Both the position numbers and the translations under genes were made by a program. 64,000 nt of DNA from an uncultured Bacteroidales bacterium (lineage in GTDB: Bacteria > Bacteroidota > Bacteroidia > Bacteroidales > JAGOPY01): NCBI GenBank assembly GCA_963701785.1, contig CAVPBC010000002.1, forward strand, positions 1,365,093-1,429,092. Reading direction: 5' to 3'. A model generated the notes under the pieces. The model saw nothing but the letters and a program-made list of their open reading frames with translations. It had not been told where the DNA came from and made no database searches. This document shows, piece after piece, positions 24,360-64,000 of the stretch (its first letter is position 1; the number at the start of each line of letters is the position of its first letter).

Positions 24360-24360
24360 G

Positions 24361-44102: not shown

Positions 44103-44144
44103 CCTCTGTTTCCTCTGTTTATCCTCTGATACCTCTGCGGTTAA
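44103..44144. repeat. solo right arm of the TTAACCACAGAG palindromic element family
   Basis: CCTCTGTTTCCTCTGTTTATCCTCTGATACCTCTGCGGTTAA matches 55972-56013 at 41 of 42 nt. The following GACTTTTGTGAC also matches the flank at ~56026-56037. Confidence 0.8.
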
Positions 44145-44235
44145 TAATAAATGGGACTTTTGTGACATCCTCACTAAAATAATAGAGGCTAAATCCTGGC
44201 AATTTCCTTAGTTTTACAATGTAAATACAGGAAAA

Positions 44236-46586: not shown

Positions 46587-46660
46587 CTGGAAACGTCAAC
46601 CATGCTAAATGACTTCATGGGCACCTATGTTATGGATCCGATGAACCAAAATGAGATTTT

Positions 46661-46668
46661 TATGTTTA
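46661..46668 (+). promoter_or_regulatory. possible Bacteroidota -7 promoter box (TATGTTTA; consensus TAnnTTTG)
   Basis: 28 nt upstream of ATG 46696. An identical octamer sits at the same spacing upstream of the paralogue at 54044, within a conserved GGATCCGATGAACCAAA...TATGTTTA leader. Confidence 0.3.
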
Positions 46669-46695
46669 ATGCCTACACTACTTAAAATATTATTT

Positions 46696-48493: not shown

Positions 48494-48564
48494 CCGAGAC
48501 TAATTCACGGCTGCTGCACTGAACAAAACATGATTACTTTTGTTGTAAGTTCGAAATTGAGAAA

Positions 48565-49783
48565 ATGAAAAAGATAAAGTTACTTCTGGCCATTCTTCTG
48601 ATATCAAACATGGGGTTGAACGCCCAGATCAACCTTGTTGGTGCAGCATATAACCCGTCGACCGAAATGATCGATATTGTCAAATGGCAGGCGCTCGATT
48701 CGGGATCTGTAATCACCATTCCATCTATCCTTGAGGGATATTACTTCGGCTCATCAGCATTTGATGCATACAATGGAAATTATTACCTGACCGGGATCAC
48801 CGCCGATGATCAGGGCTTGTTTTCATTCAACACTCAAACAAATGAACAGGAACTGAGTGAATTCACTCTATTTTCGAATGTTTCGGAATTCGACATGAGC
48901 ACGGGCAAAATTTACGATCTCCGCCTTGACTCTACCGAATATATCAGTGTGAATGAATTTGATATTCTAACCGGAACTGACAGCCTGATCGGGGTGATCT
49001 ATGAGCCGGGAGCCAATGCAATTGTGGCTGACGCAATCGGTTTTAATTCCAATGATGGCATTATTTATTATGTGGGTTTTACTAATGAACCTGCAATATG
49101 CCTTTACGCTATCCCGGTAAGGGAAGAAGTTTTTTCTTTCAGCAGGACAACGCTTTTGCCAACCGCTCCTTATAATATTCTGACCGGCGTAAATTATGAT
49201 AATGTCAATGATAAGATATTTGCGTTAAATGCAACTTACGACAGCCTTTTCAATTATACCGGCAACGAAATCGTAGAGATAGATAAAGAGACCGGCGATA
49301 TTAATGTCCTGGCAGAATTGAATGAATTTACAGGATTCGTAGGCGGTTCTTCTTCTTTCGATCAGAATACCGGCAGTTTTCTGCTTTCGGGTATTGATAC
49401 CAGCAACCTGTTGCGCATGATCGTCTTCAACACCTACACAAACACCTATGAGACCGGGTTTGTCCCTGGCGTTTCCGAAATCGCTTGTGATAATACCATA
49501 TTTGCATTGAACAATTACATCATAACCTCAGTAACAGATAATGAAGAAATTGACTTCAGTGTCTCCCCAAATCCTGCCACCGACAGGCTTAGGGTTACTG
49601 TTAACGCTGCGTGAAGATGTCCTGGTGAGGATTTATTCGACGAATGGAAGCCTGGTGATCAGCAAAGAATTCTCACCAGGGGAAAATATTGAATTGTACC
49701 TGGATTTCCTGCCGTCAGGCGCATATCTTGTCAATGTTTTATCCGGCGGGATGAACGGTTCTAAAAAGATTCAGATACTTTAA
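48565..49783 (+). pseudogene. hypothetical secreted protein with T9SS C-terminal sorting domain; 1 frame disruption (~49600)
   Basis: Pieces 48565-49614 (signal MKKIKLLLAILLISNMGLNAQ; ...FSVSPNPATDRLRV) and 49541-49783 (VRIYSTNGSLV...GAYLVNVLSGGMNGSKKIQIL). Confidence 0.65.
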
Positions 49784-49792
49784 ATATTATTT

Positions 49793-51589
49793 ATGAAAAC
49801 AGATCAATACACCAAATCAACCACCTTAAAATCCTTCATTTTAGGCGTCATATTATTATCATCAATGACGATGTCGCTTAATGCCCAGTCACTTACGATT
49901 CAAACACCAAACGGTGGGGAGGTATGGACCTACGGGCAGTCGGAGATCATAACCTGGACCGGAAACAACCTTAGCAATTCAGTTATGGTCTACTTCTCCT
50001 ATGACGGCGGGACGAACTGGTGGTCTTATGGGCAGGTTCCTTCAGGACCCAATGGCGGCAGCGCAACGGTTAGCGCTCCAAATGTTCAAACCACGAATGC
50101 AATAATTAATCTGACCGATGTCATTAATCCTGATGCAACCGATATGAGTGATGAGCCATTTACTGTTTATGTTCCACCGATTATCATTTGGAGCCCTGCG
50201 CAAGGAGATGTCATCTTTAATAACACCGTATCGTCTGTGTTCTGGGTAATAAATACTACAGGGATCAATCTTCTTAATGCTGAACTGTCGAATGATAATG
50301 GCCAGACCTATACACTCATAGGGGAAAATATAAATGCACAGGAGGGTTATACCTTTCTCTTTTTTTCCACCACTCCTTCTGATTCATGCATCATCAGGCT
50401 ATACAACGTGGAAGATCCTGCTGAATATGGTCTCAGCGCTATCTTTACAATAGCAACTCCCCCGGTCTATACCCTCACATCCCCGCAGGGAGGTGAAATT
50501 GTAAATACATTTAGCCCTTTCTTAATTACATGGACGGTGGAAAACCCTTATGGGCCCTATTGCTACCTTGAATACTCCGAAGATAGCGGACAGACCTGGG
50601 AGATTATTGATAATGCCATGAATGAAGGCAATTCAGGAAGTTACGAATGGTTTACGCCCAATGTGGAGTCCGAAGAGTGCCTTGTCAGGATCACGGACTC
50701 TTATTCATTTACATCGGTCGATACCAGTGGAATGTTCACAATTTTAATGTTCCCTGAAACACCGGTCTGTATGGTGTCGGTTGATAGCCTGACAAACTAC
50801 AATGTGGTTATTTGGGAAAAGCCTGTTTCAGATATGATAGCCGATTTCCTGGTTTATAAAGAAACAGATGAATTTAATGTTTATGAAGTGATCGATACAG
50901 TAGGGTATGAAGAAATAGCGATGGTCACAGATTCCGGTTCAAACCCGGGCATGAGGCCTTATCGGTATAAAATCGGGTTCATTGATGTCGAAAACAGGCT
51001 ATTCCCGGCAGGCGATTACCACCAGACCATTCACCTGACCATCAATCAGGGTGTGAACGATTCATGGAACCTGATCTGGACCCCTTACATCGGAATTGAT
51101 TATACTTCATATAAGATCATGCGGAAAACAGATGCTGATGATTTTGAGCAGATCGCGACCGTATCGGCCAGTTTCAGTTCATTTACTGATTTTAACGCTC
51201 CTCCCGGTGAAGTTTTCTATATGATCAAGATCGAGCATCCTGACGGCTGCAACCCGGCTTCACGCGATGGAGAATATGCCAGCGTTTATTCCAATGTAGC
51301 TTCGAACAGCATCGTTTCGGTTTCCGAAAACAAAGACCTGGACTTCACCATTTATCCCATCCCGGCTGATAAGCAACTCCATGTTTCATTCGGAGAAAAC
51401 ATCACCGGAAAGGCCAGGCTGATCATCAGCGACCTGACGGGCAGGATGGTTTATTCGAAAGATATCAATGGCGCGCGTCCCGGACAGGTGCAGTCGATCA
51501 ACAGCCTTAACTTTAAAGAGGGGATGTACGTTCTGCGGTTAACCTCAGAGGGTAACAGTGCAATCAGGAAGATCGTGATTAAGCACTAG
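49793..51589 (+). CDS. Asp-box repeat / FN3-like T9SS cargo protein, paralogue 2
   Basis: 598 aa, intact. SYDGGTNW, SNDNGQTY, SEDSGQTW. The C-terminal ~290 aa are ~90% identical to copies 1 and 3. Confidence 0.8.
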   Translation: MKTDQYTKSTTLKSFILGVILLSSMTMSLNAQSLTIQTPNGGEVWTYGQSEIITWTGNNLSNSVMVYFSYDGGTNWWSYGQVPSGPNGGSATVSAPNVQTTNAIINLTDVINPDATDMSDEPFTVYVPPIIIWSPAQGDVIFNNTVSSVFWVINTTGINLLNAELSNDNGQTYTLIGENINAQEGYTFLFFSTTPSDSCIIRLYNVEDPAEYGLSAIFTIATPPVYTLTSPQGGEIVNTFSPFLITWTVENPYGPYCYLEYSEDSGQTWEIIDNAMNEGNSGSYEWFTPNVESEECLVRITDSYSFTSVDTSGMFTILMFPETPVCMVSVDSLTNYNVVIWEKPVSDMIADFLVYKETDEFNVYEVIDTVGYEEIAMVTDSGSNPGMRPYRYKIGFIDVENRLFPAGDYHQTIHLTINQGVNDSWNLIWTPYIGIDYTSYKIMRKTDADDFEQIATVSASFSSFTDFNAPPGEVFYMIKIEHPDGCNPASRDGEYASVYSNVASNSIVSVSENKDLDFTIYPIPADKQLHVSFGENITGKARLIISDLTGRMVYSKDINGARPGQVQSINSLNFKEGMYVLRLTSEGNSAIRKIVIKH

Positions 51590-51625
51590 CGGAATAAGTT
51601 CGTGCTCCAACAACCCCCATCCCGG

Positions 51626-52227: not shown

Positions 52228-53319
52228 ATGGCGCAACAATATTTAGATCATTCAAAAGCAATTTTAACTTCTCATCGTTCCAATTTTAAAGGGGGAAGCA
52301 AAGGTTCGGGGATTATCTCATTATTTGGATATCAAAACGAATATGATCTCAGAGAAGGGTATCCCTTATTGACTACAAAAAAAATGGCCACAAGATCCAT
52401 GTTTCATGAAACAATATGGTTCTTGCGAGGGGATACAAATATTAAATATCTTGAAGACAATAACGCCCCGATCTGGAGGCCTGATGCTTTTCAGGACAAT
52501 CTTCCAGGGATGATCAAAGAAGGAGTATTTCCGGAAGGTCTTATAAAGTATTCTCCCGATTGGGACAAAGCGATGGAAGAATATGGTCAGAGGATAAGAG
52601 AAGATGCTGAATTTGCAGAAAGATGGGGAGATGCAGGACCCATATATGGTAAACAGTGGAGAAGATGGGAATATTTTGATCATGACAAAGGAACCTTTGT
52701 TGAAATAGATCAACTGGGAAAAATGATTGCAGGTCTGAAAAAGAAACCAACCGGGAAGAAACATATTGTCGATTCATGGAATCCCGGGGATACCCCGAAA
52801 ATGTCATTACCTCCATGCCATGTTCTTTACCAGGCAACTGCAAATGAAGAAGGAGAGCTGGAATTACAGCTTTACCAGAGAAGTTGCGACCAGTTTTTAG
52901 GTGTCCCTTTTAATATAGCCAGTTATGCTGCGCTCACCCAGATAATTGCGCAGGAAGCAGATATGGTCCCAAAAACATTTATCCACACTTTTGGCGATGC
53001 ACATTTTTATACCAGTATTGGAAAGAGAACTCAATGGTACAAAGGTAATTTCAAGGAAGTACAACAAAGAATAAGAAGTGTTTCTCAAAGAGAAGATTAT
53101 CTGGAAGTTGTTGATTGGATCAATAAAAATGCCCCCAGTGACGGAAATGAAGAAAAATATGATCATGTAACTGCAATACTCGAGCAAATGTCGAGGGAAC
53201 CCAGGCCCCTGCCTAAATTACATATTGCAAAAAAACCTTTTGATCAGTTGACCATAGATGATTTTGTCGTAGAAAATTATGATCCCCATCCTCCGATAAG
53301 AAGGAATATGTGTGTATAA
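52228..53319 (+). CDS. thyA: thymidylate synthase (ThyA family), unusually long with two insertions
   Basis: 363 aa. HETIWFLRGDTNIKYL, GPIYGKQWRRW, DQLGKMIAGLKKKPTGKKHIVDSWNP, LPPCHVLYQ (catalytic Cys), YQRSCDQFLGVPFNIASYAALTQ, FGDAHFY. Confidence 0.85.
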   Translation: MAQQYLDHSKAILTSHRSNFKGGSKGSGIISLFGYQNEYDLREGYPLLTTKKMATRSMFHETIWFLRGDTNIKYLEDNNAPIWRPDAFQDNLPGMIKEGVFPEGLIKYSPDWDKAMEEYGQRIREDAEFAERWGDAGPIYGKQWRRWEYFDHDKGTFVEIDQLGKMIAGLKKKPTGKKHIVDSWNPGDTPKMSLPPCHVLYQATANEEGELELQLYQRSCDQFLGVPFNIASYAALTQIIAQEADMVPKTFIHTFGDAHFYTSIGKRTQWYKGNFKEVQQRIRSVSQREDYLEVVDWINKNAPSDGNEEKYDHVTAILEQMSREPRPLPKLHIAKKPFDQLTIDDFVVENYDPHPPIRRNMCV

Positions 53320-53930
53320 ACCGCACAACTTTGGAAGAATTAGTATTTGCTATTCCAGCAGACATCCTATGGAAATTATTACCCTATAAAGAAAAGGGGT
53401 TAATAAAGGGAACCGGCGATGTTTTGAACAGGATTGTTCAGAATGGCCTGTTTCGGAAAAGGAGCGAATTGGAAGAAGACCCTTCCTTTAAGCAAATTAT
53501 TCCGTATGCATTGATCTCAAATAAAAAATCATTTTACGTATTCCGGAGAATATCCGGGCAGACAGAGAAAAGATTACACAATAAGCTTCACCTGGGTGTA
53601 GGCGGGCATATGAATCCCGGCAGTTCAAAGGAACCGGGTGAACAGTACCTGGTTAATGAATTAAAAAGAGAATTTTTTGAAGAGGTTCAATTGTTAAATG
53701 GATGTTTAATAGAGGATATAGAATTTATTGGCTTTATCAATGATGATTCTATTTCGGTTGGCCGTGTTCATATAGGACTACTATATAATATCCGTGTATC
53801 AAATAGATATGTTGTTATTAATGAAACGGATAAGATGTCAGCAGAATGGATAGATAAAAAAGATCTGTTTGAATATTACGAAGAAATGGAAACATGGACT
53901 AAAATTGCAATTGATGACTTTATAAAGTGA
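53310..53930 (+). CDS. Nudix-like hydrolase (YmaB-like by recollection), overlapping the thyA stop
   Basis: 206 aa. GVGGHMNPG...E..LVNELKREFFEEVQL approximates a Nudix box with an enlarged loop. GTG start at 53310 overlaps the thyA end by 10 nt; start codon uncertain. Confidence 0.6.
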   Translation: MCINRTTLEELVFAIPADILWKLLPYKEKGLIKGTGDVLNRIVQNGLFRKRSELEEDPSFKQIIPYALISNKKSFYVFRRISGQTEKRLHNKLHLGVGGHMNPGSSKEPGEQYLVNELKREFFEEVQLLNGCLIEDIEFIGFINDDSISVGRVHIGLLYNIRVSNRYVVINETDKMSAEWIDKKDLFEYYEEMETWTKIAIDDFIK

Positions 53931-54007
53931 AGATATACACCAGCATAAAAGTGTAAGCCTCCCCGGACAAGCTTATTTTTGGATCCGATGAACCAAATTG
54001 AAATGAA

Positions 54008-54015
54008 TATGTTTA
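54008..54015 (+). promoter_or_regulatory. possible -7 promoter box (TATGTTTA), conserved with 46661-46668
   Basis: Same octamer and the same 28-nt spacing to ATG 54044, preceded by the conserved GGATCCGATGAACCAAA. Confidence 0.3.
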
Positions 54016-54043
54016 TTCCGTTAATTACTAAAAAAAATTATTT

Positions 54044-55840
54044 ATGAAAAAAGATAATTACGCTAAATCAAGCACATTTAGATCCTACATTTTTGGAATC
54101 ATATTATTGTCATCCATGACGATGTCCATTCATGCCCAGACACTTACGGTTCAATCACCAAATGGTGGGGAGTTTTGGACTTATGGAGGAACAGAAATAG
54201 TCACCTGGACCGGTAACAACCTTAGTAGCATTGTTTCGATACACTTTTCTTATGACGGCGGGACGAACTGGTGGTATTTCGGCGAGGTTCCTTCAGGCCC
54301 CAATGGTGGCAGTGCAACGCTTGGGGTCCCAAATGTTCAAACCACGAATGCAATATTAAAGCTTAGTGATGTCATTAATCCTGTTGCAACCGACATGAGT
54401 GATGAGCCATTTACTGTTTATGTTCCGCCGATCGTCATTTATGCACCTTCTCCGGAATATGCCGTTTTTGCTGGAAGTGATGTATATGTTAACTGGATGC
54501 TGACCGTGGGTGGTATTACTCTTCTAAATGCTGAAATATCGATTGATAATGGTATGACCTATACACCCGTTGCTCAAAACATTAATGCACTGGCGGGGTA
54601 TACCTATCTAAATTTGTCCGATACCCCTGCGGATTTATGTATCCTCAAGCTTTATAACGCTCAGGATCCTTCCGAGTATGGCCTGAGCGAAGTTTTTACA
54701 ATAAGTCCCCTTCCTGTTTATAACCTGGTTACCCCGGCGGCCGGGGAACTTGTCAATACCAACAGCCCTTACACAATCACCTGGACCGTGGAAAATCCTT
54801 ATTCAGCGTATTGCTACCTTGAATACTCCGTAAATAACGGCCAGACCTGGGAGGTTATCAATAATGCAATTAATGAAGGGAATTCAGGTAGTTACGAATG
54901 GTATACGCCAAATGTGGATTCCGAAGAATGCCTGGTCAGGATCACCGATTCCTATGCATTTTCGGAAATGGATACCAGTGGAGTGTTCTCAATATTTACC
55001 TTCCCGGAAACGCCGGTTTGCATGGTCTCCGTTGACAGCCTGACCAACTTTAATGTGATCATCTGGGAAAAGCCTGTTTCTGATATCATAGCCGATTTCC
55101 TGGTTTATAAAGAAACAGATGAAGCCAATGTCTATGAAGTGATTGATACGGTAGGTTATGTGGAAGTAACCATGGTCACCGACTCCGGTTCAAACCCGGC
55201 CATCAGGCCCTATCGGTATAAGATCGGGTTCGTTGATGTCGAAAACAGGCTGTTCCCGGCAGGTGATTACCACCAGACCATTCACCTGACCATCAACCAG
55301 GGAGTGAATGATTCCTGGAACCTGATCTGGACACCTTATACCGGGTTCGATTATTCTTCCTATAAGATCATGCGTAAAACAGATTCTGGCGATTATGAGC
55401 AGATCGCGACCGTTTCGGCCAGTTTCAGTTCATATACTGACTTCAACGCCCCTCCCGGTGAAGTCTTCTATATGGTAAAGATTGAGCACCCTGACGGCTG
55501 CAACCCTGTTACACGCGATGGAGAATATGCCAGTGTATACTCCAATGTAGCCTCGAACAGCATCGTATCGGTTTCCGAAAACAAAGATCCGGACTTCACC
55601 ATTTATCCCATCCCGGCTGATAAGCAACTCAATGTTTCATTCGGTGAAAACATCACCGGTAAGGCCAGGCTTGACATCAGCGATCTAACGGGAAGGGTGG
55701 TATATTCAGAAGATATCAACGATGTTCGTCCCGGACAGGTGCAACCAATCAACAGCTTTGGCTTTAAAGAAGGGATGTATCTGCTGCAATTAACCTGCGG
55801 AGAAAACAGCGCCACCAGGAAGATCGTAGTAAAGCATTAG
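54044..55840 (+). CDS. Asp-box repeat / FN3-like T9SS cargo protein, paralogue 3
   Basis: 598 aa, intact. SYDGGTNW, SIDNGMTY, SVNNGQTW. CTD IYPIPADKQLNVSF...MYLLQLTCGENSATRKIVVKH. Confidence 0.8.
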   Translation: MKKDNYAKSSTFRSYIFGIILLSSMTMSIHAQTLTVQSPNGGEFWTYGGTEIVTWTGNNLSSIVSIHFSYDGGTNWWYFGEVPSGPNGGSATLGVPNVQTTNAILKLSDVINPVATDMSDEPFTVYVPPIVIYAPSPEYAVFAGSDVYVNWMLTVGGITLLNAEISIDNGMTYTPVAQNINALAGYTYLNLSDTPADLCILKLYNAQDPSEYGLSEVFTISPLPVYNLVTPAAGELVNTNSPYTITWTVENPYSAYCYLEYSVNNGQTWEVINNAINEGNSGSYEWYTPNVDSEECLVRITDSYAFSEMDTSGVFSIFTFPETPVCMVSVDSLTNFNVIIWEKPVSDIIADFLVYKETDEANVYEVIDTVGYVEVTMVTDSGSNPAIRPYRYKIGFVDVENRLFPAGDYHQTIHLTINQGVNDSWNLIWTPYTGFDYSSYKIMRKTDSGDYEQIATVSASFSSYTDFNAPPGEVFYMVKIEHPDGCNPVTRDGEYASVYSNVASNSIVSVSENKDPDFTIYPIPADKQLNVSFGENITGKARLDISDLTGRVVYSEDINDVRPGQVQPINSFGFKEGMYLLQLTCGENSATRKIVVKH

Positions 55841-55908
55841 CGGATTAGGGGTTTGCGCCGTCGACTAAAGCCGTCGGTTCAGGCACCTACGGCTGTCTCA
55901 AAAGAATT

Positions 55909-56013
55909 TTAACCACAGAGAAAACAGAGGTTCAGCAGAGGAAACAGAGAAATAAGTATCTGATATTGAATCCTCTGTTTCCTCTGTTTATCCTCTGATA
56001 CCTCTGTGGTTAA
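55909..56013. repeat. 105-bp palindromic intergenic element, TTAACCACAGAG...CTCTGTGGTTAA
   Basis: 12-bp perfect termini. The arms are built from reiterated ACAGAGG/CCTCTGT words. An outer inverted pair GTCTCAAAAG (~55895) / CTTTTGAGAC (~56027) extends the structure to ~55893-56038. Confidence 0.8.
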
Positions 56014-56071
56014 TAAGAAAAATAGACTTTTGAGACGATCTTTCCGGATGGGGGTCTGTGCTCCGACGACT

Positions 56072-56876
56072 AACATTTAAAAATTGCTTTTTATACAGCG
56101 AACGGCCAGGCCACAATTTTTACGGAAATGATTTCTGAAAAGGGCGGTATTGTCATATGACATGCTCCTGTAAAATGCAAATTCAGAATTTTCTTCCGTG
56201 GAAGTCCACCATAAGCCATAATAGCCAAAGTACCAGAAAGGCCCGTCCTTTTGCCGGCTGCCGCCGGGCAATCCTGAGAAGCCGGTTACATTGGTCGCAC
56301 CCGTATTAGGGCTGTGCCAGTAGAGCGTATCGGTTTCTTTCAATTTCCCGCCCGACACCTGTTCACCTCCAAGAAATTCCACCATGATGGTCCAGTCATC
56401 ATCTGTCGGTATGCGCCAACCGTCAGGACAAAGGCCGCGGGGATCATTCAGGGCGTGCCAGTTATACAGGTGCCCGAAAACGGCGGCATTCGGGGAATGG
56501 TTATTTATATCACACCAGGCCCCGGAAAATAATTCATCCCAATCCTTACTGTCCACTACATTGGCTACCATGTCACCATTCCGATAATGGGTTGTATTCA
56601 GGTTCTCCGCCATCCAGACCTGGTTCCCGATAATTATTGTGTGATATACATTGCCGTCAATATCCGTAACAGTCGTTTTGTCTTGTTTGTCACAACAGGG
56701 TAAACAGATTATGATCCCGGTAACAACGACAGCGAATAAAGCCGGAGATAAATAAAACTTCATCGCAGGGAATGATAAATTAAGCCAATATAACGGAAAT
56801 GACCGGGGGCAGCGCCGGTAAAACCACGAATGGTCAATTTGAAATTGCAAATAGAATCAGGACAGGACAGGACAGG
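56072..56876. repeat. 0.8-kb direct repeat, copy A (contains FISUMP gene 1 and its upstream region)
   Basis: Aligns by eye with 58910-59708 with about 16 substitutions. Boundaries run from AACATTTAAAA to the (AGGAC)n tract. Confidence 0.85.
56077..56763 (-). CDS. FISUMP (Fibrobacter succinogenes major paralogous) domain lipoprotein, copy 1
   Basis: ATG at complement of 56761-56763: MKFYLSPALFAVVVTGIIICLPCC. DIDGNVYHTIIIGNQVWMAENL, GHLYNWHA, CPDGWRIPTDDDW, GGKLKE, GFSGLPGG, WWTSTE, AVRCIK. Confidence 0.8.
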   Translation of the reverse strand: MKFYLSPALFAVVVTGIIICLPCCDKQDKTTVTDIDGNVYHTIIIGNQVWMAENLNTTHYRNGDMVANVVDSKDWDELFSGAWCDINNHSPNAAVFGHLYNWHALNDPRGLCPDGWRIPTDDDWTIMVEFLGGEQVSGGKLKETDTLYWHSPNTGATNVTGFSGLPGGSRQKDGPFWYFGYYGLWWTSTEENSEFAFYRSMSYDNTALFRNHFRKNCGLAVRCIKSNF

Positions 56877-57085
56877 CAGTTTAATTAAGCAATTGATCTG
56901 AGGTCCTCGCATTTTTAGGAAACTTCTAAAGTAGGGTTTACCGGGTCATCGGGAGGAGGTCAATTCACCTGCTGTCGGCTAATTCTCTTAATCTTTGTTA
57001 AAAAAGTATTGCTTACGGATGATCCTTCTGAACCATCTGCCCCTGTTCTTGTTTCATTATTTACACCCAAAAAAGCCAACGCGTT

Positions 57086-57952
57086 ATGACACTGCTTAAA
57101 CTTCAGGTTAACAAGATCGTTGAATCAGGGCCTTTCCGTTATTTCATCCTCGGAGTGATCCTGGTGTCAGCTATTATTGTCGGAATTGAAACTTACCCGG
57201 CTTTTTATCAGGAGCATCATTCATTGCTGCATAATATTGACCGCATCATCCTTTTCATTTTTGCCATTGAGATCACTTTGAAGATCCTTGCAAAAGGGAC
57301 CAGGCCATGGGATTTCTTTAAAGATCCCTGGAATGTCTTTGATTTTATTATTGTCGGCGTATGTTTCATTCCCGGCATCGACACCCATTATGTTGCCGTG
57401 TTGCGTCTTGTCAGGGTACTGCGGGTCTTTCGGGTGATCTCCATATTCCCTAAACTGCAGCTTCTGGTAAATGCCCTGCTGAAAAGTATACCATCGATGG
57501 GTTATGTTATCGTCCTGCTGGCTTTGATCTTTTACATCTATGCCGTCATGGGCACATTCCTTTTTGGGATCAAAGATCCTGTTCACTTTGGCAACCTCCA
57601 TATTTCCATGATCACTTTATTCAAGGTGCTTACGCTTGAGGGGTGGACGGACATTATGAACATCCAGTTTTACGGGACCAATGATCCTATGGCTGAATAT
57701 AATTCAAAACCAATTTCTTACTTTTCTTTCATTTATTTTGTCTCCTTTATTCTCCTGGGTGCAATGATTATAATGAACCTGTTTATTGGCGTGATCATGA
57801 ATAGTATGCAGGAGAGTCACCAGGAAATGGAAAAAGAGAAAAAATCAAAGAGTCCTAAGTCTGAAAGTTTCGAAGGAATTATACAGGAATTGGACAGGAA
57901 AATCGATGACTTTAAAAATGATCTATCGAAATTAAAGGATGTGATCAGGTAA
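57086..57952 (+). CDS. single-domain voltage-gated cation channel of the BacNaV family, selectivity filter TLEGWTD
   Basis: 288 aa, 6 TM. S4 VAVLRLVRVLRVFRVISIFPKL (4 Arg at every third position). Pore ITLFKVLTLEGWTDIMN. C-terminal coiled coil IIQELDRKIDDFKNDLSKLKDVI. Confidence 0.85.
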   Translation: MTLLKLQVNKIVESGPFRYFILGVILVSAIIVGIETYPAFYQEHHSLLHNIDRIILFIFAIEITLKILAKGTRPWDFFKDPWNVFDFIIVGVCFIPGIDTHYVAVLRLVRVLRVFRVISIFPKLQLLVNALLKSIPSMGYVIVLLALIFYIYAVMGTFLFGIKDPVHFGNLHISMITLFKVLTLEGWTDIMNIQFYGTNDPMAEYNSKPISYFSFIYFVSFILLGAMIIMNLFIGVIMNSMQESHQEMEKEKKSKSPKSESFEGIIQELDRKIDDFKNDLSKLKDVIR

Positions 57953-57988
57953 CTTTAATCTCATATTAGACAATTAATTCAAAAGAAA

Positions 57989-58903
57989 ATGGAAATAAAC
58001 ATCTGGTTCTGGATAGGTTTCAACGCATTCATCTTATTGATGTTAGCTCTCGACCTTGGAGTCTTTCACAGGAAAGCCCATGAGGTCGGTTTTAAAGAGG
58101 CCATTACCTGGAGTGCGATATGGATTAGCCTTGCATTGGTATTTAACCTGGGAATCTATTATTATTTCGGAAAAGTCAGGGCCGTCGAATTTCTTACAGG
58201 TTATATTATAGAGAAATCGCTTAGTGTTGACAATATTTTTGTTTTTGTGTTAATATTCAGTGCATTCGCAGTGCCTGCAGCCTACCAGCACCGGGTACTT
58301 TTCTGGGGTATACTCGGTGCTTTGATCATGAGGGCAATCTTCATTTTTGCCGGAGTAGCACTCATAAATAAGTTTCACTGGATAATTTATGTCTTCGGAA
58401 TCTTCCTGCTTTACACAGGGGTTAAGATTGCCGTCCAAAAAGGCACCAAGATCAATGTCGAAAATAGCTGGATGCTTAACCTGTTCCGAAAGTATTTTCC
58501 TGTCACAAACAACTATCATGGAGCCAAATTTATTACAAAGATCGAGGGAAAGAAATACGCCACACCCCTGATGCTGGTGCTGATCCTGGTAGAAACCACC
58601 GACCTGATCTTTGCAGTCGACTCTATCCCTGCAATCTTAGCCATTACCGACAATCCGTTCATTGTATATACTTCCAATGTATTTGCCATTCTCGGGCTGC
58701 GGTCATTATATTTCGCGCTTGCTGGGATTTTAAAGTACTTCCATTACCTGCACTATGGCCTGGCAGCAATACTGGTCTTTGTTGGTATCAAGATGCTGAT
58801 CTCAGATTTTTATAAGTTTGATCCTTTTGTTTCATTGGGTATCATAGCCATAATCCTTATTGTGAGTATCGTGTTGTCGATTCTTAAACCTTCAAAGCAC
58901 TAG
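57989..58903 (+). CDS. TerC-family integral membrane protein (Alx-like)
   Basis: 304 aa. YIIEKSLSVDNIFVFVLIF and VETTDLIFAVDSIPAILAIT (duplicated TerC motifs). Starts 36 nt after the channel gene. Confidence 0.85.
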   Translation: MEINIWFWIGFNAFILLMLALDLGVFHRKAHEVGFKEAITWSAIWISLALVFNLGIYYYFGKVRAVEFLTGYIIEKSLSVDNIFVFVLIFSAFAVPAAYQHRVLFWGILGALIMRAIFIFAGVALINKFHWIIYVFGIFLLYTGVKIAVQKGTKINVENSWMLNLFRKYFPVTNNYHGAKFITKIEGKKYATPLMLVLILVETTDLIFAVDSIPAILAITDNPFIVYTSNVFAILGLRSLYFALAGILKYFHYLHYGLAAILVFVGIKMLISDFYKFDPFVSLGIIAIILIVSIVLSILKPSKH

Positions 58904-58909
58904 TGGAAG

Positions 58910-59708
58910 AACATTTAAAATTTGCCTTTTATACAGCGAACGGCCAGGCCACAATTTTTACGGAAATGATTCCTGAAAAGGGCGGTATTGTCATATGACA
59001 TGCTCCTGTAAAATGCAAATTCAGAATTTTCTTCCGTGGATGTCCACCATAAGCCATAATAGCCAAAGTACCAGAAAGGTCCGTCCTTTTGCCGGCTGCC
59101 GCCGGGCAATCCTGAGAAGCCGGTTACATTGGTCGCACCCGTATTAGGGCTGTGCCAGTAGAGCGTATCGGTTTCTTTCAATTTCCCGCCCGACACCTGT
59201 TCACCTCCAAGAAATTCCACCATGATGGTCCAGTCATCATCTGTCGGTATGCGCCAACCGTCAGGACAAAGGCCGCGGGGATCATTCAGGGCGTGCCAGT
59301 TATACAGGTGCCCGAAAACGGCGGCATTCGGGGAATGGTTATTTATATCACACCAGGCCCCGGAAAATAATTCATCCCAATCCCTGCTGTCCACCACATT
59401 GGCTACCATGTCACCATTCCGGTAATGGGTCGTCTTCAGGTTCTCTACCATCCAGACCTGGTTCCCGATAATTACTGTGTGATATACATTGCCGTCAATA
59501 TCCGTAACAGTCGTTTTGTCTTGTTTGTCACAACAGGGTAAACAGATTATGATCCCAGTAACAACGACAGCGAATAAAGCCGGAGATAAATAAAACTTCA
59601 TCGCAGGGAATGATAAATTAAGCCAATATAACGGAAATAACCGGGGGCAGCGCCGGTAAAACAACGAATGGTCAATTTGAAATTACAAATTCAATGAGGA
59701 CAGGACAC
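58910..59708. repeat. 0.8-kb direct repeat, copy B
   Basis: See copy A. Begins 7 nt after the TerC stop. Confidence 0.85.
58915..59601 (-). CDS. FISUMP-domain lipoprotein, copy 2
   Basis: ATG at complement of 59599-59601. The protein differs from copy 1 at a handful of positions (HTVIIG, VENLKT, SRDW, C-terminal KGKF). Confidence 0.8.
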   Translation of the reverse strand: MKFYLSPALFAVVVTGIIICLPCCDKQDKTTVTDIDGNVYHTVIIGNQVWMVENLKTTHYRNGDMVANVVDSRDWDELFSGAWCDINNHSPNAAVFGHLYNWHALNDPRGLCPDGWRIPTDDDWTIMVEFLGGEQVSGGKLKETDTLYWHSPNTGATNVTGFSGLPGGSRQKDGPFWYFGYYGLWWTSTEENSEFAFYRSMSYDNTALFRNHFRKNCGLAVRCIKGKF

Positions 59709-59795
59709 CTGGTGGATGAATAAATCTGTTTACTTCAAGCCATCCATATTTAGGCATATTATTACTATATTTAATCCAACCAAAAACCTCAACTT

Positions 59796-62738
59796 ATGAA
59801 ACGCACATTTTGCCATGCGGTCCTGGCTTTTGGACTGCTGTTCTCGACCAATTTCATCCATGCACAGGTCTCTATCAACGCTACTAACACCCCGGCTAAC
59901 AGCTCTGCGATGCTGGATGTGAGCAGCACCACAAAGGGCTTGCTGATCCCGAGCATGACACAGGCCCAAAGGGATGCCATCGTAAATCCCGCTACGGGAC
60001 TGCTCATCTACCAACTGGATTTTCCCATCGGAGTTTACTTTAATGCCGGCACTCCCGATTCCCCGCACTGGTTCCTGGTTGGAATTAATGCCGGGCAATG
60101 GGGTACAGAAGGGAACGATATTTTCTACCTTACAGGTAATGTAGGTATTGGAACCTATACTCCGGGGGCGAGATTGGAAGTAGTCGGGGGTGATATCCTT
60201 GTCAATGATTTAACGCTGGGACGAGGATTAGGCAATCAACCGCAAAATACAGCGTTCGGATACCATGCTCTTGACACCAACACCACCGGCAATTTTAACA
60301 CGGCCATTGGGCTTTATGCCCTGGCAGGCAATACAACCGGCACAGGCAATACTTCCCTGGGAAGTTCTGCCCTCATTGCCAATAAAACCGGCAGTTATAA
60401 CATTGCAATCGGAAGGCGTACCCTTTTCAGCAATGTTTCAGGTTCAGATAATATAGCCATAGGAACGAGAGCCTTATACAATTGTACCAACAGGGGCAAT
60501 CTTATAGCTATAGGTGATTCTGCCCTGTTTAATAATAGCCAGGGAGCAACATTCTCAAGCCAGGGGACTCAAAATACAGCTGTGGGATCAAAAGCCCTTT
60601 ATTCCAATACGGTCGGAAAAAGCAACTCTGCATTCGGATATGAGGCATTGATTGCCAACGACACAGGTGATTATAATGCTGCATATGGCCATTTTTCACT
60701 CCATTCCAATACTTCCGGAGGTATGAATGTTGCTATGGGAGGCTTTTCGTTGGATGAAAACACTTCAGGATCGTGGAACATTGCTATAGGTCACGGTGCA
60801 ATGAGCAGCAATACAACAGGAAATTCCAATTGTGCCTATGGTTTAAGTGCGCTGCATGATAACATTTCGGCGGGATTTAACACGGCCATTGGTTATGCTT
60901 CCCTGTATAATAATGAAACCGGCGAAAACAATGTTGCTATTGGCAGCATGGCGCTGTTTTTTAATAAGGAAATCTCAGACCTTGTTGCCATTGGAGATTC
61001 CGCACTATACTCGAATGGCATGTCAGGATTTGGCTACCCGGAATCGGCCATGAATACCGGGGTAGGTTCAAAAGTCCTGCGATCGAACGATTACGGGAGA
61101 TGCAACACGGCGCTGGGTTGCGAGGCCTTATATGGCAATTATTCTGCAAATTACAACACAGCCATCGGGGCATTTGCACTCAACGCCAATAACGGGTGGA
61201 GCAACACCGCCACCGGATATAATTCCCTTAATTCGAACACAGGAGGAGGAAGCAATACTGCGAACGGAAGTGATGCGCTTTTCTCAAATACCTCAGGGGG
61301 TTATAATACAGCAATCGGGAGAAATGCCATGCATGATAATACGACAGCCATGAATAATTCTTCAATTGGATATAATACATTATTTCACAATACCACAGGT
61401 TATTCCAACACGGCCATCGGTGCATCCGCGCTTTTCTGGAATACATCGCGGTCCAACCTCGTGGCGGTCGGTGACTCCGCCTTATTCTACAATGGCTCCG
61501 GGGCTTCAGGCACCCAGGCTACATGCAATACAGCGATTGGATCAAAGGCTCTTTACTTGAATACGACCGGCAAGAACAACACGGCCCAGGGATTCAACAC
61601 ATTACAAAACAACTCTTCTGGCGACTATAATACCGGTACCGGGCATTTGTCACTGTTCACAAACACCACCGGTGACAGGAACACGGCAACAGGCTCCCAG
61701 GCACTTTATTTTAACACGCAAGGCACCTATAATACGGCATCAGGATATGCAGCACTTTATCACAATACTACCGGTGACCACAATACCGCAATAGGCTATG
61801 TCGCGTTATATGATAATACAACTGCCAATAATAATACCTCGGTCGGCTATGGTTCAATGTATAACAATGCTACAGGGTATTCGAATGTCGCAGTAGGCGT
61901 TGCCTCTCTTTTTGAGAACACCAACCGTTCCAACCTTGTGGCGGTCGGTGACAGCGCTTTGTACAATAACGGCTTAAATGTTAGCTCTTCTGAACATGCC
62001 ACTAAAAATACCGCTGTGGGCTCAAAATCCCTGTATTCAAACAGCAATGGCTATTCTAACAGTGCCGTAGGTTATGAAGCGCTCTATTCCAGTACTACCG
62101 GAGATCAAAATGTGGCAATTGGAGAGCAGGCACTCTTCTCGAACACAACCGGATCCTATAACACCGCCGTTGGGGTGGATGCGGGTTCCAGCCAATCCAA
62201 TATCACGCAAGGCACCTTTATCGGTAATGCAACCTTTGCCAGCGGTTCCGGTCTGACCAATGTGACTGCTATCGGATACAATACGAGCGTAACCGCGAGC
62301 AGCCAGGTCCGTATAGGCAACTCCGGCGTATCCAGCATCGGCGGATACGCCGGCTGGACCACCCTGCCCAGCGACAGCAGATACAAAAACAATGTCCGGG
62401 AAAATGTCTACGGATTGGATTTTATCTTAAAACTCCGTCCGGTGACCTATAACCTGGATTTGAAAAGACTTTCTATAGACCTGGGAGAAGAACAGGATGC
62501 AAATCTGATTACAGATAAATCTAAGGCTGTCTATTCCGGCTTCATCGCACAGGAGGTTGAAGCAGCCGCAAAAAGCATCGGCTATGAATTCAGCGGTGTG
62601 GATGCCCCAAAAAATGAGGATGATTTTTACGGCCTTCGCTACGCTGAGTTTGTCGTGCCGCTGGTGAAGGCGGTGCAGGAACTCTCGGCAAAAGTGGAGT
62701 CACTGGAAAGGGAACTGGCAGAAATGAAAAAGAAGTGA
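59796..62738 (+). CDS. tail-fibre-like repeat protein: signal peptide, ~40 YadA-head-like NTA(I/V)G repeats, C-terminal peptidase-S74 intramolecular-chaperone domain
   Basis: 980 aa, intact. MLDVSSTTKGLLIPSMTQAQRDAIVNPATGLLIY. Reiterated NTA.G..AL..NTTG. LPSDSRYKNNV...LRPVTYNL...GFIAQEVE...YGLRYAEFVVPLVKAVQEL plus a coiled coil. Confidence 0.8.
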   Translation: MKRTFCHAVLAFGLLFSTNFIHAQVSINATNTPANSSAMLDVSSTTKGLLIPSMTQAQRDAIVNPATGLLIYQLDFPIGVYFNAGTPDSPHWFLVGINAGQWGTEGNDIFYLTGNVGIGTYTPGARLEVVGGDILVNDLTLGRGLGNQPQNTAFGYHALDTNTTGNFNTAIGLYALAGNTTGTGNTSLGSSALIANKTGSYNIAIGRRTLFSNVSGSDNIAIGTRALYNCTNRGNLIAIGDSALFNNSQGATFSSQGTQNTAVGSKALYSNTVGKSNSAFGYEALIANDTGDYNAAYGHFSLHSNTSGGMNVAMGGFSLDENTSGSWNIAIGHGAMSSNTTGNSNCAYGLSALHDNISAGFNTAIGYASLYNNETGENNVAIGSMALFFNKEISDLVAIGDSALYSNGMSGFGYPESAMNTGVGSKVLRSNDYGRCNTALGCEALYGNYSANYNTAIGAFALNANNGWSNTATGYNSLNSNTGGGSNTANGSDALFSNTSGGYNTAIGRNAMHDNTTAMNNSSIGYNTLFHNTTGYSNTAIGASALFWNTSRSNLVAVGDSALFYNGSGASGTQATCNTAIGSKALYLNTTGKNNTAQGFNTLQNNSSGDYNTGTGHLSLFTNTTGDRNTATGSQALYFNTQGTYNTASGYAALYHNTTGDHNTAIGYVALYDNTTANNNTSVGYGSMYNNATGYSNVAVGVASLFENTNRSNLVAVGDSALYNNGLNVSSSEHATKNTAVGSKSLYSNSNGYSNSAVGYEALYSSTTGDQNVAIGEQALFSNTTGSYNTAVGVDAGSSQSNITQGTFIGNATFASGSGLTNVTAIGYNTSVTASSQVRIGNSGVSSIGGYAGWTTLPSDSRYKNNVRENVYGLDFILKLRPVTYNLDLKRLSIDLGEEQDANLITDKSKAVYSGFIAQEVEAAAKSIGYEFSGVDAPKNEDDFYGLRYAEFVVPLVKAVQELSAKVESLERELAEMKKK

Positions 62739-62954
62739 TCTCACCGCCCGCATCCTGTGAAAAATCAAAAACCTGGCAAAAAGAAAAAGCACCCGGAATT
62801 CATGGACGATTTTACATGTTTTTGAGTGAGAGCAAAATCATCAGACTAAGGGGGAAGCTTACACAAGGACCGTGTTAACCTGGCCGGATTCTCCAATATT
62901 AGCGTAACCCAGGAAATGTTATAAGAATCTCACTTCTTGTATTCTTACATTCTT

Positions 62955-64000
62955 TCAGAAGGCACCTAAGGATGCCAATGAAATTACGTTTATGCCGTCG
63001 TTTCGAGTGTAACTTATTCCTGTTCCTGTTATTATGTTGATCGATCTGGGTGGTTTCGTTTTTTTTGTGTCTAATATCGAAACTAACTTTTTAAGACTTA
63101 CTGCAGCTTCGTCAAATTGCCCGGTGCCGAGTTTTATTTCAAAAGCGCACCAGTCGCCATTATATTTTTGCACAATGCAGTCCACTTCCAAACCGCTTGA
63201 ATCGCGGTAATGATAAACTTTGGCATCATTTGCCTGTGCGTATACGCGTAATTCGTGCGTAACGAGTGACTCAAACAAAAAGCCCGTAAAATTCAAATCG
63301 TTTAACAGCGAATTTTCGTCTGCTCCTAACGCAGCAATAGCCAGGGAAACATCGGTAAAATGTCGTTTTGGCGCTTTTCGCAATGACGACGATGATCGTA
63401 TATGCGTGTTCCAGGCAGGTTGATCATCCACAATCATCAACCGGTTCAGGGCATCGAGATAATCATAAACGGTTGGCCGGGTAATACCTCCGTTTTCCTT
63501 TTCACGGATATCGCTTTCCAAAGCGGAAATATCCACTATTGTTGCGGTGTTTCTGGCAAGCGAACGCAGCAGGCTTCGTACTTTTACCGGGTCGCGCTTC
63601 ACATCGGAAACCCTGCTCAGATCCACTTCGGCAAGTAATTCAACATACGCACGGTTTAAGTCGGTCGCCTGTGAAATATTTTTATTCAGTGAAGTGGGAA
63701 AACCTCCGATAATCAGTCTCTCGATGATAAATTCCAGGTCAGTAGGGTTTTCATAAACATCAATCTTTTCGCCTTCAAAGAGTTTCGCCAGGCTTATTTT
63801 ACCCGATGAAAAGCCTAATTCCTGCCACGACATGGTACGCATATCTACGATGGTAAACCTGCCGGCACCCGAGTGCATTTTAGCTGATTCTTCAGGATTT
63901 GCGGAACCTGTGAGAATGAATTGTGCAGTTTTTTGACGGTCGTCTATTTCGTGGCGTATGTAGTCCCAAAGTTTTGGTTGAGCCTGCCATTCGTCAACCA
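62955..64000 (-). CDS. AAA+ ATPase with DUF4143 domain (COG1373-type), 5' end beyond the right edge
   Basis: The ORF track begins at 63878, but the frame stays open to 64000: VDEWQAQPKLWDYIRHEIDDRQKTAQFILTGSANP (Walker B-like). C-terminal GFLFESLVTHELRVY...EVDCIV...AFEIKLG (restriction-endonuclease-like DUF4143). Confidence 0.75.
   Translation of the reverse strand, partial: VDEWQAQPKLWDYIRHEIDDRQKTAQFILTGSANPEESAKMHSGAGRFTIVDMRTMSWQELGFSSGKISLAKLFEGEKIDVYENPTDLEFIIERLIIGGFPTSLNKNISQATDLNRAYVELLAEVDLSRVSDVKRDPVKVRSLLRSLARNTATIVDISALESDIREKENGGITRPTVYDYLDALNRLMIVDDQPAWNTHIRSSSSLRKAPKRHFTDVSLAIAALGADENSLLNDLNFTGFLFESLVTHELRVYAQANDAKVYHYRDSSGLEVDCIVQKYNGDWCAFEIKLGTGQFDEAAVSLKKLVSILDTKKTKPPRSINIITGTGISYTRNDGINVISLASLGAF

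Follow-up and report, generated by a model that had tools for sequence, protein, structure and literature searches.

Paralogous FISUMP lipoprotein cassettes, a probable gene-conversion mosaic, flank a resident channel-TerC operon in an uncultured Bacteroidales genome

We analysed a window of 64,000 nucleotides (the whole stretch of DNA examined) from an uncultured Bacteroidales bacterium. Two paralogous FISUMP cassettes flank a resident channel-TerC operon and probably form a gene-conversion mosaic, an instance of ordinary concerted evolution, with nothing to indicate a mobile element. A cassette comprises one coding sequence together with the ∼106 bp that precede it, and the two bracket the operon as direct repeats. 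Their 97.4% identity would be the outcome of intrachromosomal gene conversion and not of a single clean duplication in recent times. The most recent homogenisation may have covered a core of at least 303 bp; most of the remaining repeat sequence would have been homogenised earlier, though still after the closest relatives sampled had branched off. Conversion would have missed a patch of 92 bp, or the patch was imported, and the copies there may be as old as that split, or older.

Geometry and coding content of the repeats

Local alignment joined the two repeats in one ungapped 798-bp direct match with 21 mismatches; coordinates are given in Table 1. The original prediction had set the repeats at 56072-56876 and 58910-59708. 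They are real, but the right edge of copy 1 was placed 7 nt too far, and the estimate of about 16 substitutions (∼98% identity) was low. It correctly gave each repeat a complete FISUMP gene (an intact 228-aa ORF in both) with ∼110 bp of upstream region (106 bp by alignment), and, as it stated, the space between the repeats holds no sizeable ORF with family support other than the channel and TerC genes. No third copy emerged when the window was compared with itself by BLAST.

Table 1. Positions of the repeats, their internal segments and neighbouring features in the window
Feature	Positions	Strand	Remarks
Hairpin, 105 nt (52-nt arms, 81% complementary)	55909..56013	.	between T9SS-cargo gene and FISUMP-1
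Repeat copy 1	56072..56869	-	FISUMP-1 gene + 106 bp upstream + 5 nt past stop
FISUMP-1 CDS	56077..56763	-	228 aa; ATG 56763, stop 56077-56079
Identical core, 303 bp	56243..56545 (partner 59081-59383)	-	0 differences; adjoins patch B
Divergent patch B, 92 bp	56546..56637 (partner 59384-59475)	-	9/21 differences
(GGACA)3 pentanucleotide repeat	56860..56874	+	5′ (upstream) edge of copy 1
Upstream region of channel operon, conserved	56964..57043	+	precedes VTT/DedA gene in relatives
Voltage-gated cation channel, single-domain, BacNaV type	57086..57952	+	PF00520, 168 bits
TerC/Alx-family membrane protein, 304 aa	57989..58903	+	TIGR03718, PF03741
Repeat copy 2	58910..59707	-	FISUMP-2 + 106 bp upstream + 5 nt past stop
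FISUMP-2 CDS	58915..59601	-	228 aa; ATG 59601, stop 58915-58917
(GGACA)2	59698..59707	+	5′ edge of copy 2

On its 3′ side, copy 2 breaks off abruptly. Copy 2 starts 6 nt after the TerC stop, and the convergent stop codons of TerC and FISUMP-2 are 11 nt apart with no terminator between them. This junction occurred in the window and in one other contig, L001; relatives with an intact TerC carry other sequence there. The motif GGACAGGACA was found three times in the 64 kb, every time at a repeat edge (two edges), where 0.06 occurrences were expected. Past the 5′ edge, residual similarity between the copies reached a local score of 9, equalled by 53 of 500 shuffles and thus not significant alone, so that this edge cannot be proved to be the end of a conversion tract as against a duplication breakpoint. 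The hairpin at 55909-56013 is probably a shared terminator or a REP-like element, and a 65-nt piece related to it was found by self-BLAST at 44103-44166.

Both proteins scored well above family cut-offs (PF09603, 160 bits against 33.9; TIGR02145, 130 bits for FISUMP-1 and 127 for FISUMP-2 against 41.65), and they differ at six residues (I43V, A52V, N56K, K73R, S226G, N227K). FISUMP-1 begins with MKFYLSPALFAVVVTGIIICLPCC followed by DKQDK, which, read from the sequence alone, gives a hydrophobic signal, a Cys and an acidic stretch; in the lipoprotein signal read in this way, without a predictor, residue -1 is a non-canonical Cys or Pro. FISUMP-1 matched collection protein P0246, encoded on a 2.89-Mb contig, at 100%, and exact-protein look-ups with both copies returned no record. 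The AlphaFold model of FISUMP-1 (pLDDT 90.5) matched no PDB fold at E<0.001, giving only faint C-type-lectin-like matches. Between the copies we counted 8 synonymous changes over 144 sites and 7 non-synonymous changes over 540 sites (dS ∼0.056, dN ∼0.013). The resulting dN/dS of ∼0.23 indicates that both are functional genes kept by purifying selection. The upstream 106 bp differ by 5.7%, about equal to dS.

Mosaic divergence between the copies

The differences between the copies are unevenly distributed. The original prediction had noticed a cluster at ∼56575-56625; the clustering is real, but the stretch is wider, extending over patch B. Beside it, the 303-bp identical run was improbable under permutation (p=0.0008 with uniform rates, p=0.0024 rate-weighted), and it takes in an unbroken series of 54 sites at which the relatives vary (GENECONV-like p=0.0015). 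Among relatives, the core is not unusually conserved and patch B is not unusually variable.

Comparison with the outgroup contig L070 gave a second view of the same mosaic. In patch B, 9 copy-copy differences stood against 1 site where the copies both differ from L070, while the adjoining segments had 3 and 0 copy-copy differences against 18 and 13 sites of shared divergence from L070 (Fisher p=1e-4 and 1e-5 for patch B against these two neighbours). Across segments, the proportion of copy-copy differences to shared divergence was heterogeneous (chi-square p=2.5e-5). Copy 1 differs in patch B at 4 positions from L070/L154 and at 9 from copy 2; counts in the patch are small, with 3 changes specific to copy 1 and 6 to copy 2. 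An identical core next to a patch with almost no shared derived states points to gene conversion, and from the heterogeneity among segments relative to the outgroup we infer that conversion tracts caused the mosaic. The choice between recent duplication and ongoing gene conversion had thus been rightly framed, and the earlier hint of patchy conversion is now backed by p values from 2e-3 to 1e-5.

A simple recent segmental duplication, in which copy 2 arose from copy 1 in the window lineage (for example by template switch, or by tandem duplication then deletion) and the 21 differences accumulated by drift with no conversion, appears unlikely. It would account for the copies being each other's closest overall (97.4%, compared with 93.5-94.9% to L068, L070 and L154), for the presence of FISUMP behind TerC in no relative, for the abrupt 3′ end of copy 2, which a breakpoint would leave, and for the near-even derived changes over the whole repeat (9 versus 11 between the copies). 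However, uniform drift fails on 0 differences in 303 bp beside 9 in 92 bp (p ∼0.001-0.002), neither special conservation of the core nor special variability of the patch in relatives comes to its aid, and the near-absence of shared derived states in patch B is left unexplained. The same mosaic would result if the gene had been duplicated recently and the 92-bp patch then imported once, whether a third paralog or a related strain was the donor; a third donor is conceivable, as the analysis covered 64 kb of the 2.89-Mb genome. Targeted hypermutation of the patch was considered because the cluster is short and FISUMP proteins have been annotated as targets of diversity-generating retroelements (DGRs) in 43 cases (PMC11661182). 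This explanation is effectively refuted: the window holds no third (template) repeat, the changes show no preference for adenine (of the 9 sites, copy 1 has A at 4 and copy 2 at 1), synonymous sites changed too, and patch B falls within the first, N-terminal third of the gene and away from the C-terminus. Finally, it is very improbable that a single FISUMP gene, or a pair of strain variants, was wrongly placed twice by the assembly. The source is a metagenome-derived 2.89-Mb contig, but the flanks of the two copies differ on both sides. Moreover, L001 (Logan run ERR11561443, 2613 bp, 3 mismatches), a separate assembly that may share the sample behind the window, has both inner junctions, copy 1-channel and TerC-copy 2. 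Its left repeat carries copy-1 alleles at 6/6 upstream sites and its right repeat copy-2 alleles at 3/5 sites; the mixing of alleles in the right repeat could suggest an artefact but is expected when a de Bruijn assembler pops bubbles. Such repeats break short-read assemblies at this locus, and it is within them that L001 and several 1-2-kb contigs end.

The bracketed operon and its relatives

The channel has one 6-TM Ion_trans domain (PF00520 match, residues 16-247), and its best PDB sequence matches were Cav3/Cav1 repeats and NaChBac. The pore filter is TLEGWTD, compared with TLEGWVD in CavMr and TLEDWTD in NavPp; position 4 is Gly, which CavMr shares, and position 7 is acidic. By domain and filter, the channel is predicted to belong to the ancestor-like BacNaV (AnclNav/CavMr-like) group. 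TerC is the second gene, 36 nt downstream (TIGR03718 score 433 bits, cut-off 246). The model name 'R_switched_Alx' derives from the yybP-ykoY (Mn) riboswitch leader; neither this nor any other riboswitch gave an Rfam match at E≤1 in 53000-64000, where only chance miRNA-like hairpin hits were returned.

The same-strand cluster of TerC, VTT/DedA and channel is conserved in dozens of Bacteroidales genomes. Among 72 channel loci, TerC lay on the same strand within 2.5 kb in 50 and VTT immediately upstream in 44. In the window, the conserved region upstream of the channel operon matches L150:3623-3702, L152:2789-2868 and L153:1-68 at 81-84%, and the VTT gene that follows in L150 (3703-4324) has no counterpart, indicating that the window lost VTT/DedA from this operon. 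The channel-TerC pair is a resident operon, the apparent remnant of the TerC/VTT(DedA)/channel cluster after VTT loss, and not cargo of the repeats. That a CavMr-like channel is kept beside TerC and DedA/VTT across Bacteroidales points to a common role in divalent-cation or membrane-potential homeostasis. The bracketed genes probably hold more interesting biology than the repeats.

The relatives compared are metagenome contigs, some just 1-2 kb long, and chimeric assembly is possible for any one of them; the neighbours of this genome are Prolixibacteraceae/Draconibacterium-like. None of the relatives examined has the two-copy FISUMP arrangement, and a search among them for the same layout with diverged repeats, named in the original prediction as contrary evidence, found no example. 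They carry channel-TerC without FISUMP, one FISUMP with decayed or missing channel/TerC, or the channel alone. The 3′ flank of copy 1 (to 56059, then the T9SS-cargo gene) is common to L068, L070, L151 and L154, which places copy 1 at the ancestral position; its 5′ intergenic region is common to L070. Relatives with an intact TerC (L152/L153, 93-94% aa; L155/L156, 88%) have FISUMP on neither side, and copy 2 behind TerC is lineage-specific. Five relatives have lost or truncated TerC or the channel, seemingly in independent events. These differences in gene content among close relatives confirm that the channel-TerC locus is in flux.

The original prediction had likened the repeats and their 'insert' to a composite element without transposase. 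Such a reading, with FISUMP, channel and TerC as excisable or amplifiable cargo that entered as a Campbell-type circle or cycles between single, looped-out and tandem states, seems quite improbable to us. Certain observations would fit it: the direct repeats hold the 303-bp identical core, the conversion evidence shows that the copies do interact, and L001 fits a circle or a tandem array equally as well as two flanking copies. The predicted relatives with one FISUMP and neither channel nor TerC do exist, in L068 and L154, which have it beside the same T9SS gene (L070 matches only partly). But the upstream neighbour in L154 is a different, propeller-like gene and not the right flank of the window, so that L154 is no simple loop-out product. 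The mappable losses of channel or TerC (L070, L150, L151, L157) end within or beside those genes, away from the FISUMP repeats, and the cluster is present in relatives without FISUMP flanks. As for a composite transposon, it was rejected because each repeat encodes FISUMP alone, with no transposase and no other ORF with family support. No inverted repeats were found at the repeat ends, comparison of the sequences just outside the unit (...CGACGACTA and CCTGGTGG...) showed no target-site duplication, and no record in plasmid and phage collections contained the unit. No deletion or tandem variant was observed in the assemblies compared, and in none of the relatives without channel/TerC does the locus look like a simple loop-out.

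It is a long shot that the FISUMP gene with a ∼106-130-bp promoter region is a discrete relocatable cassette, with the upstream (GGACA)n as a recombination hot spot. Among relatives 85-95% identical, the cassette occupies at least five genomic contexts (next to the channel, behind TerC, next to the propeller-like gene, between two T9SS genes and next to a terminator hairpin). A GGACAGGAYA motif directly follows TerC in L152, L153 and L070, and the channel in L151, and at these novel junctions, after the channel stop or after TerC, the (GGACA)n motif or the FISUMP 5′ flank stands alone. Were the cassette moved by a specific mechanism, be it a site-specific recombinase or template switching at microhomologies, Bacteroidota would have a promoter-carrying gene cassette system unlike any described there.

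Under the gene-conversion reading, the repeat pair would still expose the 2-kb operon to RecA-type deletion or tandem amplification, because the recombination intermediates of conversion can also resolve as crossovers. For RecA-dependent recombination, tens of bp of perfect identity suffice, and its rate rises with length; at 798 bp and 97.4% identity, with a longest identical run of 303 bp, the repeats qualify as substrates. Loop-out or amplification is therefore a plausible expectation from 0.8-kb repeats with such a core, and the pair marks the channel-TerC operon of this genome as structurally unstable.

Comparison with known systems

A composite transposon likewise has two like elements in the same orientation around 'cargo' genes, but the window unit lacks transposase, terminal inverted repeats, target-site duplication and plasmid or phage occurrence. 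Long direct repeats such as IS, rrn or paralog copies bound chromosomal units that are amplified or deleted through RecA-dependent unequal crossing-over. The window shares with these the 0.8-kb direct repeats, the 303-bp identical core and the 2-kb segment between, and differs in that working genes take the place of IS or rrn copies as repeats and its segment is an old resident operon. Against known families of FISUMP (Fibrobacter succinogenes major paralogous domain; TIGR02145/PF09603) lipoproteins, the copies show nothing out of the ordinary: they share the strong HMM scores and the habit of occurring in several copies, and their N-terminus reads as a putative signal with Cys.

The tufA/tufB genes of Salmonella and the rRNA operons are textbook cases of intrachromosomal gene conversion. 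As in these, identical tracts alternate with older patches in the FISUMP copies, which appear functional and under purifying selection and would be far more alike than their age predicts. They differ from the textbook cases as direct repeats 2.8 kb apart that bracket an unrelated operon, with a converted unit that takes in the promoter region. Without outgroups, 0.8-kb repeats at 97% identity give no basis for calling either a 'recent duplication' or a 'mobile unit'. With them, the pair offers a statistically supported and clean, if modestly important, example of concerted evolution in surface-lipoprotein paralogs of an uncultured Bacteroidales bacterium.

The FISUMP repeat pair and its mosaic ancestry

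The repeat scan and local alignment placed a direct repeat at 56072-56869 (copy 1) and 58910-59707 (copy 2), a 798-bp ungapped match with 21 mismatches (97.4% identity). The original prediction had counted ~16 substitutions, which was too few, and had ended copy 1 seven bases beyond its true right edge; the rest of what it described is accurate. Each repeat includes a complete minus-strand FISUMP ORF together with 5 nt past the stop codon and, ahead of the ATG, 106 bp of upstream sequence. From the sensible starts, ATG 56763 and ATG 59601, both copies encode a 228-aa product (MKFYLSPALF...), and both ORFs matched the FISUMP models (TIGR02145/PF09603) far above cut-offs. The predicted fold was confident (pLDDT 90.5) with only faint C-type-lectin-like matches, and a PDB fold search with the model, run for clues to function, returned no match at E<0.001. 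Self-BLAST detected no third FISUMP copy in the 64-kb window.

Both inner junctions were reproduced in L001, a 2613-bp contig of Logan run ERR11561443 that spans 56771-59383 with 3 mismatches and fits two flanking copies, a circle or a tandem array alike. L001 is a separate assembly, although its run may or may not share the source sample of the window. Its mixed alleles were discarded as a sign of conversion in another population, since bubble-popping in a de Bruijn assembler yields the same pattern. Exact-protein look-up of both FISUMP copies gave no record of an alternative junction contig, although one collection protein (P0246) is identical to the copy 1 product.

The 106 bp ahead of the gene hold six of the differences (5.7%); the other 15 are in the CDS, where eight are synonymous and seven non-synonymous, causing six amino-acid changes. 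With dS ~0.056 and dN ~0.013 (144 synonymous and 540 non-synonymous sites), the ratio of ~0.23 shows purifying selection on both copies. Neutral divergence between them is ~5%, i.e., not negligible, and polarisation by the closest relative assigned nine derived changes to copy 1 and 11 to copy 2.

These differences are unevenly spread, with none in 303 bp (56243-56545) and nine in the adjoining 92 bp (56546-56637). A stretch of this length without differences would rarely arise if substitutions were placed at random (p=0.0008), also when sites are weighted by the variability of relatives (p=0.0024), and it takes in 54 sites in a row at which relatives vary (GENECONV-style permutation, p=0.0015). 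The identical core is as anomalous as the substitution cluster. Four FISUMP-bearing relatives (L070, L154, L068 and L069) served as outgroups for a comparison by segment. On either side of the 92-bp patch, the copies differ from each other at 3 and 0 sites and share 18 and 13 differences from L070; within the patch, they differ at nine sites, and at a single site both differ from L070 (Fisher p=1e-4 and 1e-5 against the neighbouring segments; overall chi-square p=2.5e-5). Copy 1 shows four differences from relatives in the patch versus nine from copy 2. The repeat is therefore made up of stretches of unequal age, the signature of gene conversion, and the earlier hint of patchy conversion is borne out.

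Relatives, rearrangements and repeat edges

The two-copy arrangement was found in no relative examined (see table). Copy 1 sits at an ancestral position, since four relatives have its 3′ flank and L070 has its 5′ intergenic region. Copy 2 is a lineage-specific placement, convergent with TerC, 6 nt past its stop and with no terminator between. The stops of TerC and FISUMP-2 lie 11 nt apart (58904-58914) without an intervening hairpin, and the transcripts would run antisense into each other's gene unless terminated internally.

Genes and hairpins of the window, and the corresponding arrangements in relatives (L-handles: their loci or contigs; bare coordinates: window)
Feature or locus	Position	Size or identity	Arrangement
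Ion_trans channel	57086-57952	288 aa	between repeats
TerC/Alx protein	57989-58903	304 aa	between repeats, 36 nt after channel
T9SS-cargo paralogs (three, Por_Secre_tail)	46630-48497, 49782-51596, 53977-55847	~1.8 kb, 598 aa; 77-81% DNA identity	
Near-palindrome hairpin	55909-56013	105 nt	between T9SS gene and FISUMP-1
Hairpin related to 55909-56013 element	44103-44166	65 nt	intergenic
Hairpin of a different family	62777-62818		after BIG980; also in L070 and L002
PycTM-domain and SdiA-regulated genes	23473-25412		homologs in L067:1-2649
BIG980, repeat-rich, C-terminal Peptidase_S74 (endosialidase-chaperone)	59796-62738	980 aa	divergent beside FISUMP-2
L152/L153		channel 93% aa, TerC 94% aa	T9SS gene, channel, TerC; FISUMP on neither side
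L155/L156		channel 88% aa	VTT, channel, TerC, fasciclin gene
L150	TerC stump L150:5277-5372	channel 91% aa	VTT, channel, 32-aa TerC stump
L157	L157:939-986	channel 92% aa	VTT, channel; TerC gone after 17 nt
L151		channel 89% aa	T9SS gene, decayed FISUMP remnant with copy 1 3′ flank, T9SS598 ortholog, channel; then GGACAGG motif, L069-like FISUMP 5′ flank, hairpin, tRNA-Met; no TerC
L070	TerC deletion L070:408-785	FISUMP 94% nt	T9SS gene, one FISUMP, intergenic region as at copy 1; channel deleted (counterpart of window 57044-57970 absent); TerC shortened internally and in frame (residues 41-217 lost); GGACAGGACA next, and the hairpin found after BIG980 in window
L068/L154		FISUMP 95% nt	T9SS gene, single FISUMP, 115 nt, divergent propeller-like gene; no channel/TerC
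L067		FISUMP 87% nt	FISUMP directly after PycTM and SdiA-regulated genes

The locus is a rearrangement hot spot among genomes that are only 5-15% diverged. Channel or TerC was lost or truncated, apparently independently, in five relatives (L150, L157, L151 at 3714, L070 and L002); the channels of relatives with TerC loss or truncation are 80-92% identical. Where end points of these losses could be mapped, they lie within or beside channel and TerC, not at the FISUMP repeats. L068/L154 was considered as a loop-out product and rejected: it agrees on the 3′ side, yet another gene adjoins it on the 5′ side. The 2054-bp contig of collection protein P0124 is not the unique segment between the repeats; it has lost TerC and holds VTT and channel, after which comes an unrelated gene. 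In the L070-type population (three samples; P0242, P0243 and P0245), FISUMP starts with TTG rather than ATG (L070:1088-1090), and gene callers begin at an internal Met and predict 178 aa; this may be early pseudogenisation.

The 5′ repeat edge coincides with (GGACA)n, in three units at copy 1 (56860-56874) and two at copy 2 (59698-59707); the GGACA 10-mer is absent elsewhere in the 64 kb (0.06 occurrences expected). Homology of L068, L069, L070 and L154 to the window copies likewise reaches this motif, and the unit number ranges from 1.5 to 3.5 across copies and relatives. Past it, the window copies are not significantly alike (53/500 shuffles equal), and residual homology there was dropped as proof of old paralogy. 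Flank links past the motif were weak for copy 1 to L151 (5/500 shuffles) and copy 2 to L069 (8/500); only L151 versus L069 was solid, the sequence after the L151 channel matching the L069 FISUMP 5′ flank with a local score of 20 and 0/500 shuffles as good. GGACAGGAYA occurs just after TerC in L152 (4848), L153 (2048) and L070 (383), the position of copy 2 in the window, and in relatives (GGACA)n recurs by itself where rearrangements join new sequence directly 3′ of TerC or channel (including L151:3717). These edge data are compatible both with paralogs of older date, their conversion tracts stopping close to (GGACA)n, and with (GGACA)n as microhomology for rearrangements. The motif may promote recombination, serve in regulation or be there by coincidence; it seems doubtful that the FISUMP gene and promoter form a (GGACA)n-bounded cassette that is itself relocatable.

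The channel-TerC operon and its surroundings

In Bacteroidales, the genes for TerC, a VTT/DedA-family protein and a channel of the BacNaV type lie together on one strand as a conserved cluster (57086-58903; L003-L063, L150-L157). A genome scan for the channel identified 65 loci, almost all of them in MAGs with Bacteroidales, Prolixibacteraceae or Draconibacterium-like labels. With the window itself and six closer contigs from metagenomes, the set comprises 72 loci. TerC lies on the same strand no more than 2.5 kb away in 50 of them, and in 44 a VTT/DedA gene directly precedes the channel; the order is TerC-VTT-channel or VTT-channel-TerC. The window has the latter order with VTT lost: 56964-57043 matches L150 sequence upstream of VTT, and the 622-bp VTT stretch of L150 is without counterpart. 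What the repeats enclose is therefore a long-resident operon rather than cargo. Their lower GC (40-41% vs 44% for the window) was rejected as a sign of foreign origin; it is outweighed by conservation in relatives, and lower GC is typical of membrane-protein genes.

The channel filter reads TLEGWTD, with Gly at position 4, the residue that determines Ca2+ selectivity in CavMr (TLEGWVD; PMC7041947). Our literature search found no paper linking BacNav with TerC or DedA; the cluster points to a module in which these proteins jointly serve divalent-cation or membrane-potential control. TerC belongs to TIGR03718, without the riboswitch behind the model's name. Rfam models, riboswitches included, gave no match ahead of channel-TerC or within the repeat's 106-bp leader, and this leader folds no better than shuffles (z=+0.81). 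A promoter/terminator consensus scan yielded nothing usable; sigma-70 rules are not valid for Bacteroidota.

In relatives, T9SS paralogs adjoin the channel in differing orders. The paralog at 46630-48497 is split over two frames (46696-48159, 48131-48490), reflecting a pseudogene or a sequencing error. The long intergenic hairpins look REP-like or terminator-like. A FISUMP gene with 83% identity to that of the window follows the PycTM/SdiA-regulated genes by 23 nt in L067 and a 9-kb JGI contig; none follows them at 23473-25412 in the window, where the SdiA-regulated ORF is 225 aa versus 295 aa in relatives, yet DNA homology runs on to 23473. Peptidase_S74, carried by BIG980, is a domain typical of phage tail fibres. 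Shorter relatives of BIG980 occur in the channel neighbourhoods of L002 and L150, and the 3.07-kb segment holding the gene (59708-62775), with CCTGG at both ends, is missing in L070.

Origin of the arrangement and comparison with known systems

The window carries two intact, selected FISUMP paralogs in direct orientation and of mosaic ancestry, one on each side of a resident operon. The arrangement is specific to this lineage, and the region around it is plastic. We infer that intrachromosomal gene conversion made the mosaic, and it is very likely that conversion, or an equivalent recombinational exchange, occurred at least once. A plain recent duplication without conversion, which the overall identity would allow, is unlikely, as it leaves the identical 303 bp beside the nine-difference patch to chance. 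DGR-type hypermutation could produce a substitution cluster; it was rejected because the window holds no third (template) repeat, and we give it practically no credence. An assembly artefact is very improbable.

Homologous recombination between direct repeats can delete or amplify the segment between them, and the pair would expose the channel-TerC operon to such RecA-type events. A unit that cycles through excision or amplification, or a Campbell-type insertion, would share this geometry; we hold it to be improbable, given that mapped losses in relatives do not end at the FISUMP repeats. Overall, the locus probably reflects FISUMP paralogs homogenised by conversion around a resident operon that they would make liable to recombination. 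As to how this pair arose, old paralogy and duplication in this lineage appear about equally plausible.

The FISUMP, TerC/Alx and channel genes are ordinary members of their families. The unit is absent from plasmid and phage collections, and its membership of a plasmid or phage was rejected, only a 250-bp TerC core matching alx genes (67-70%). While its conversion component stood, the original prediction of a composite or mobile insert did not: unlike a composite transposon, the pair has no transposase, terminal inverted repeats or target duplication, and what it flanks is a resident operon. Physically, it resembles a repeat-bounded amplifiable unit, and it works in the manner of paralogs under concerted evolution.
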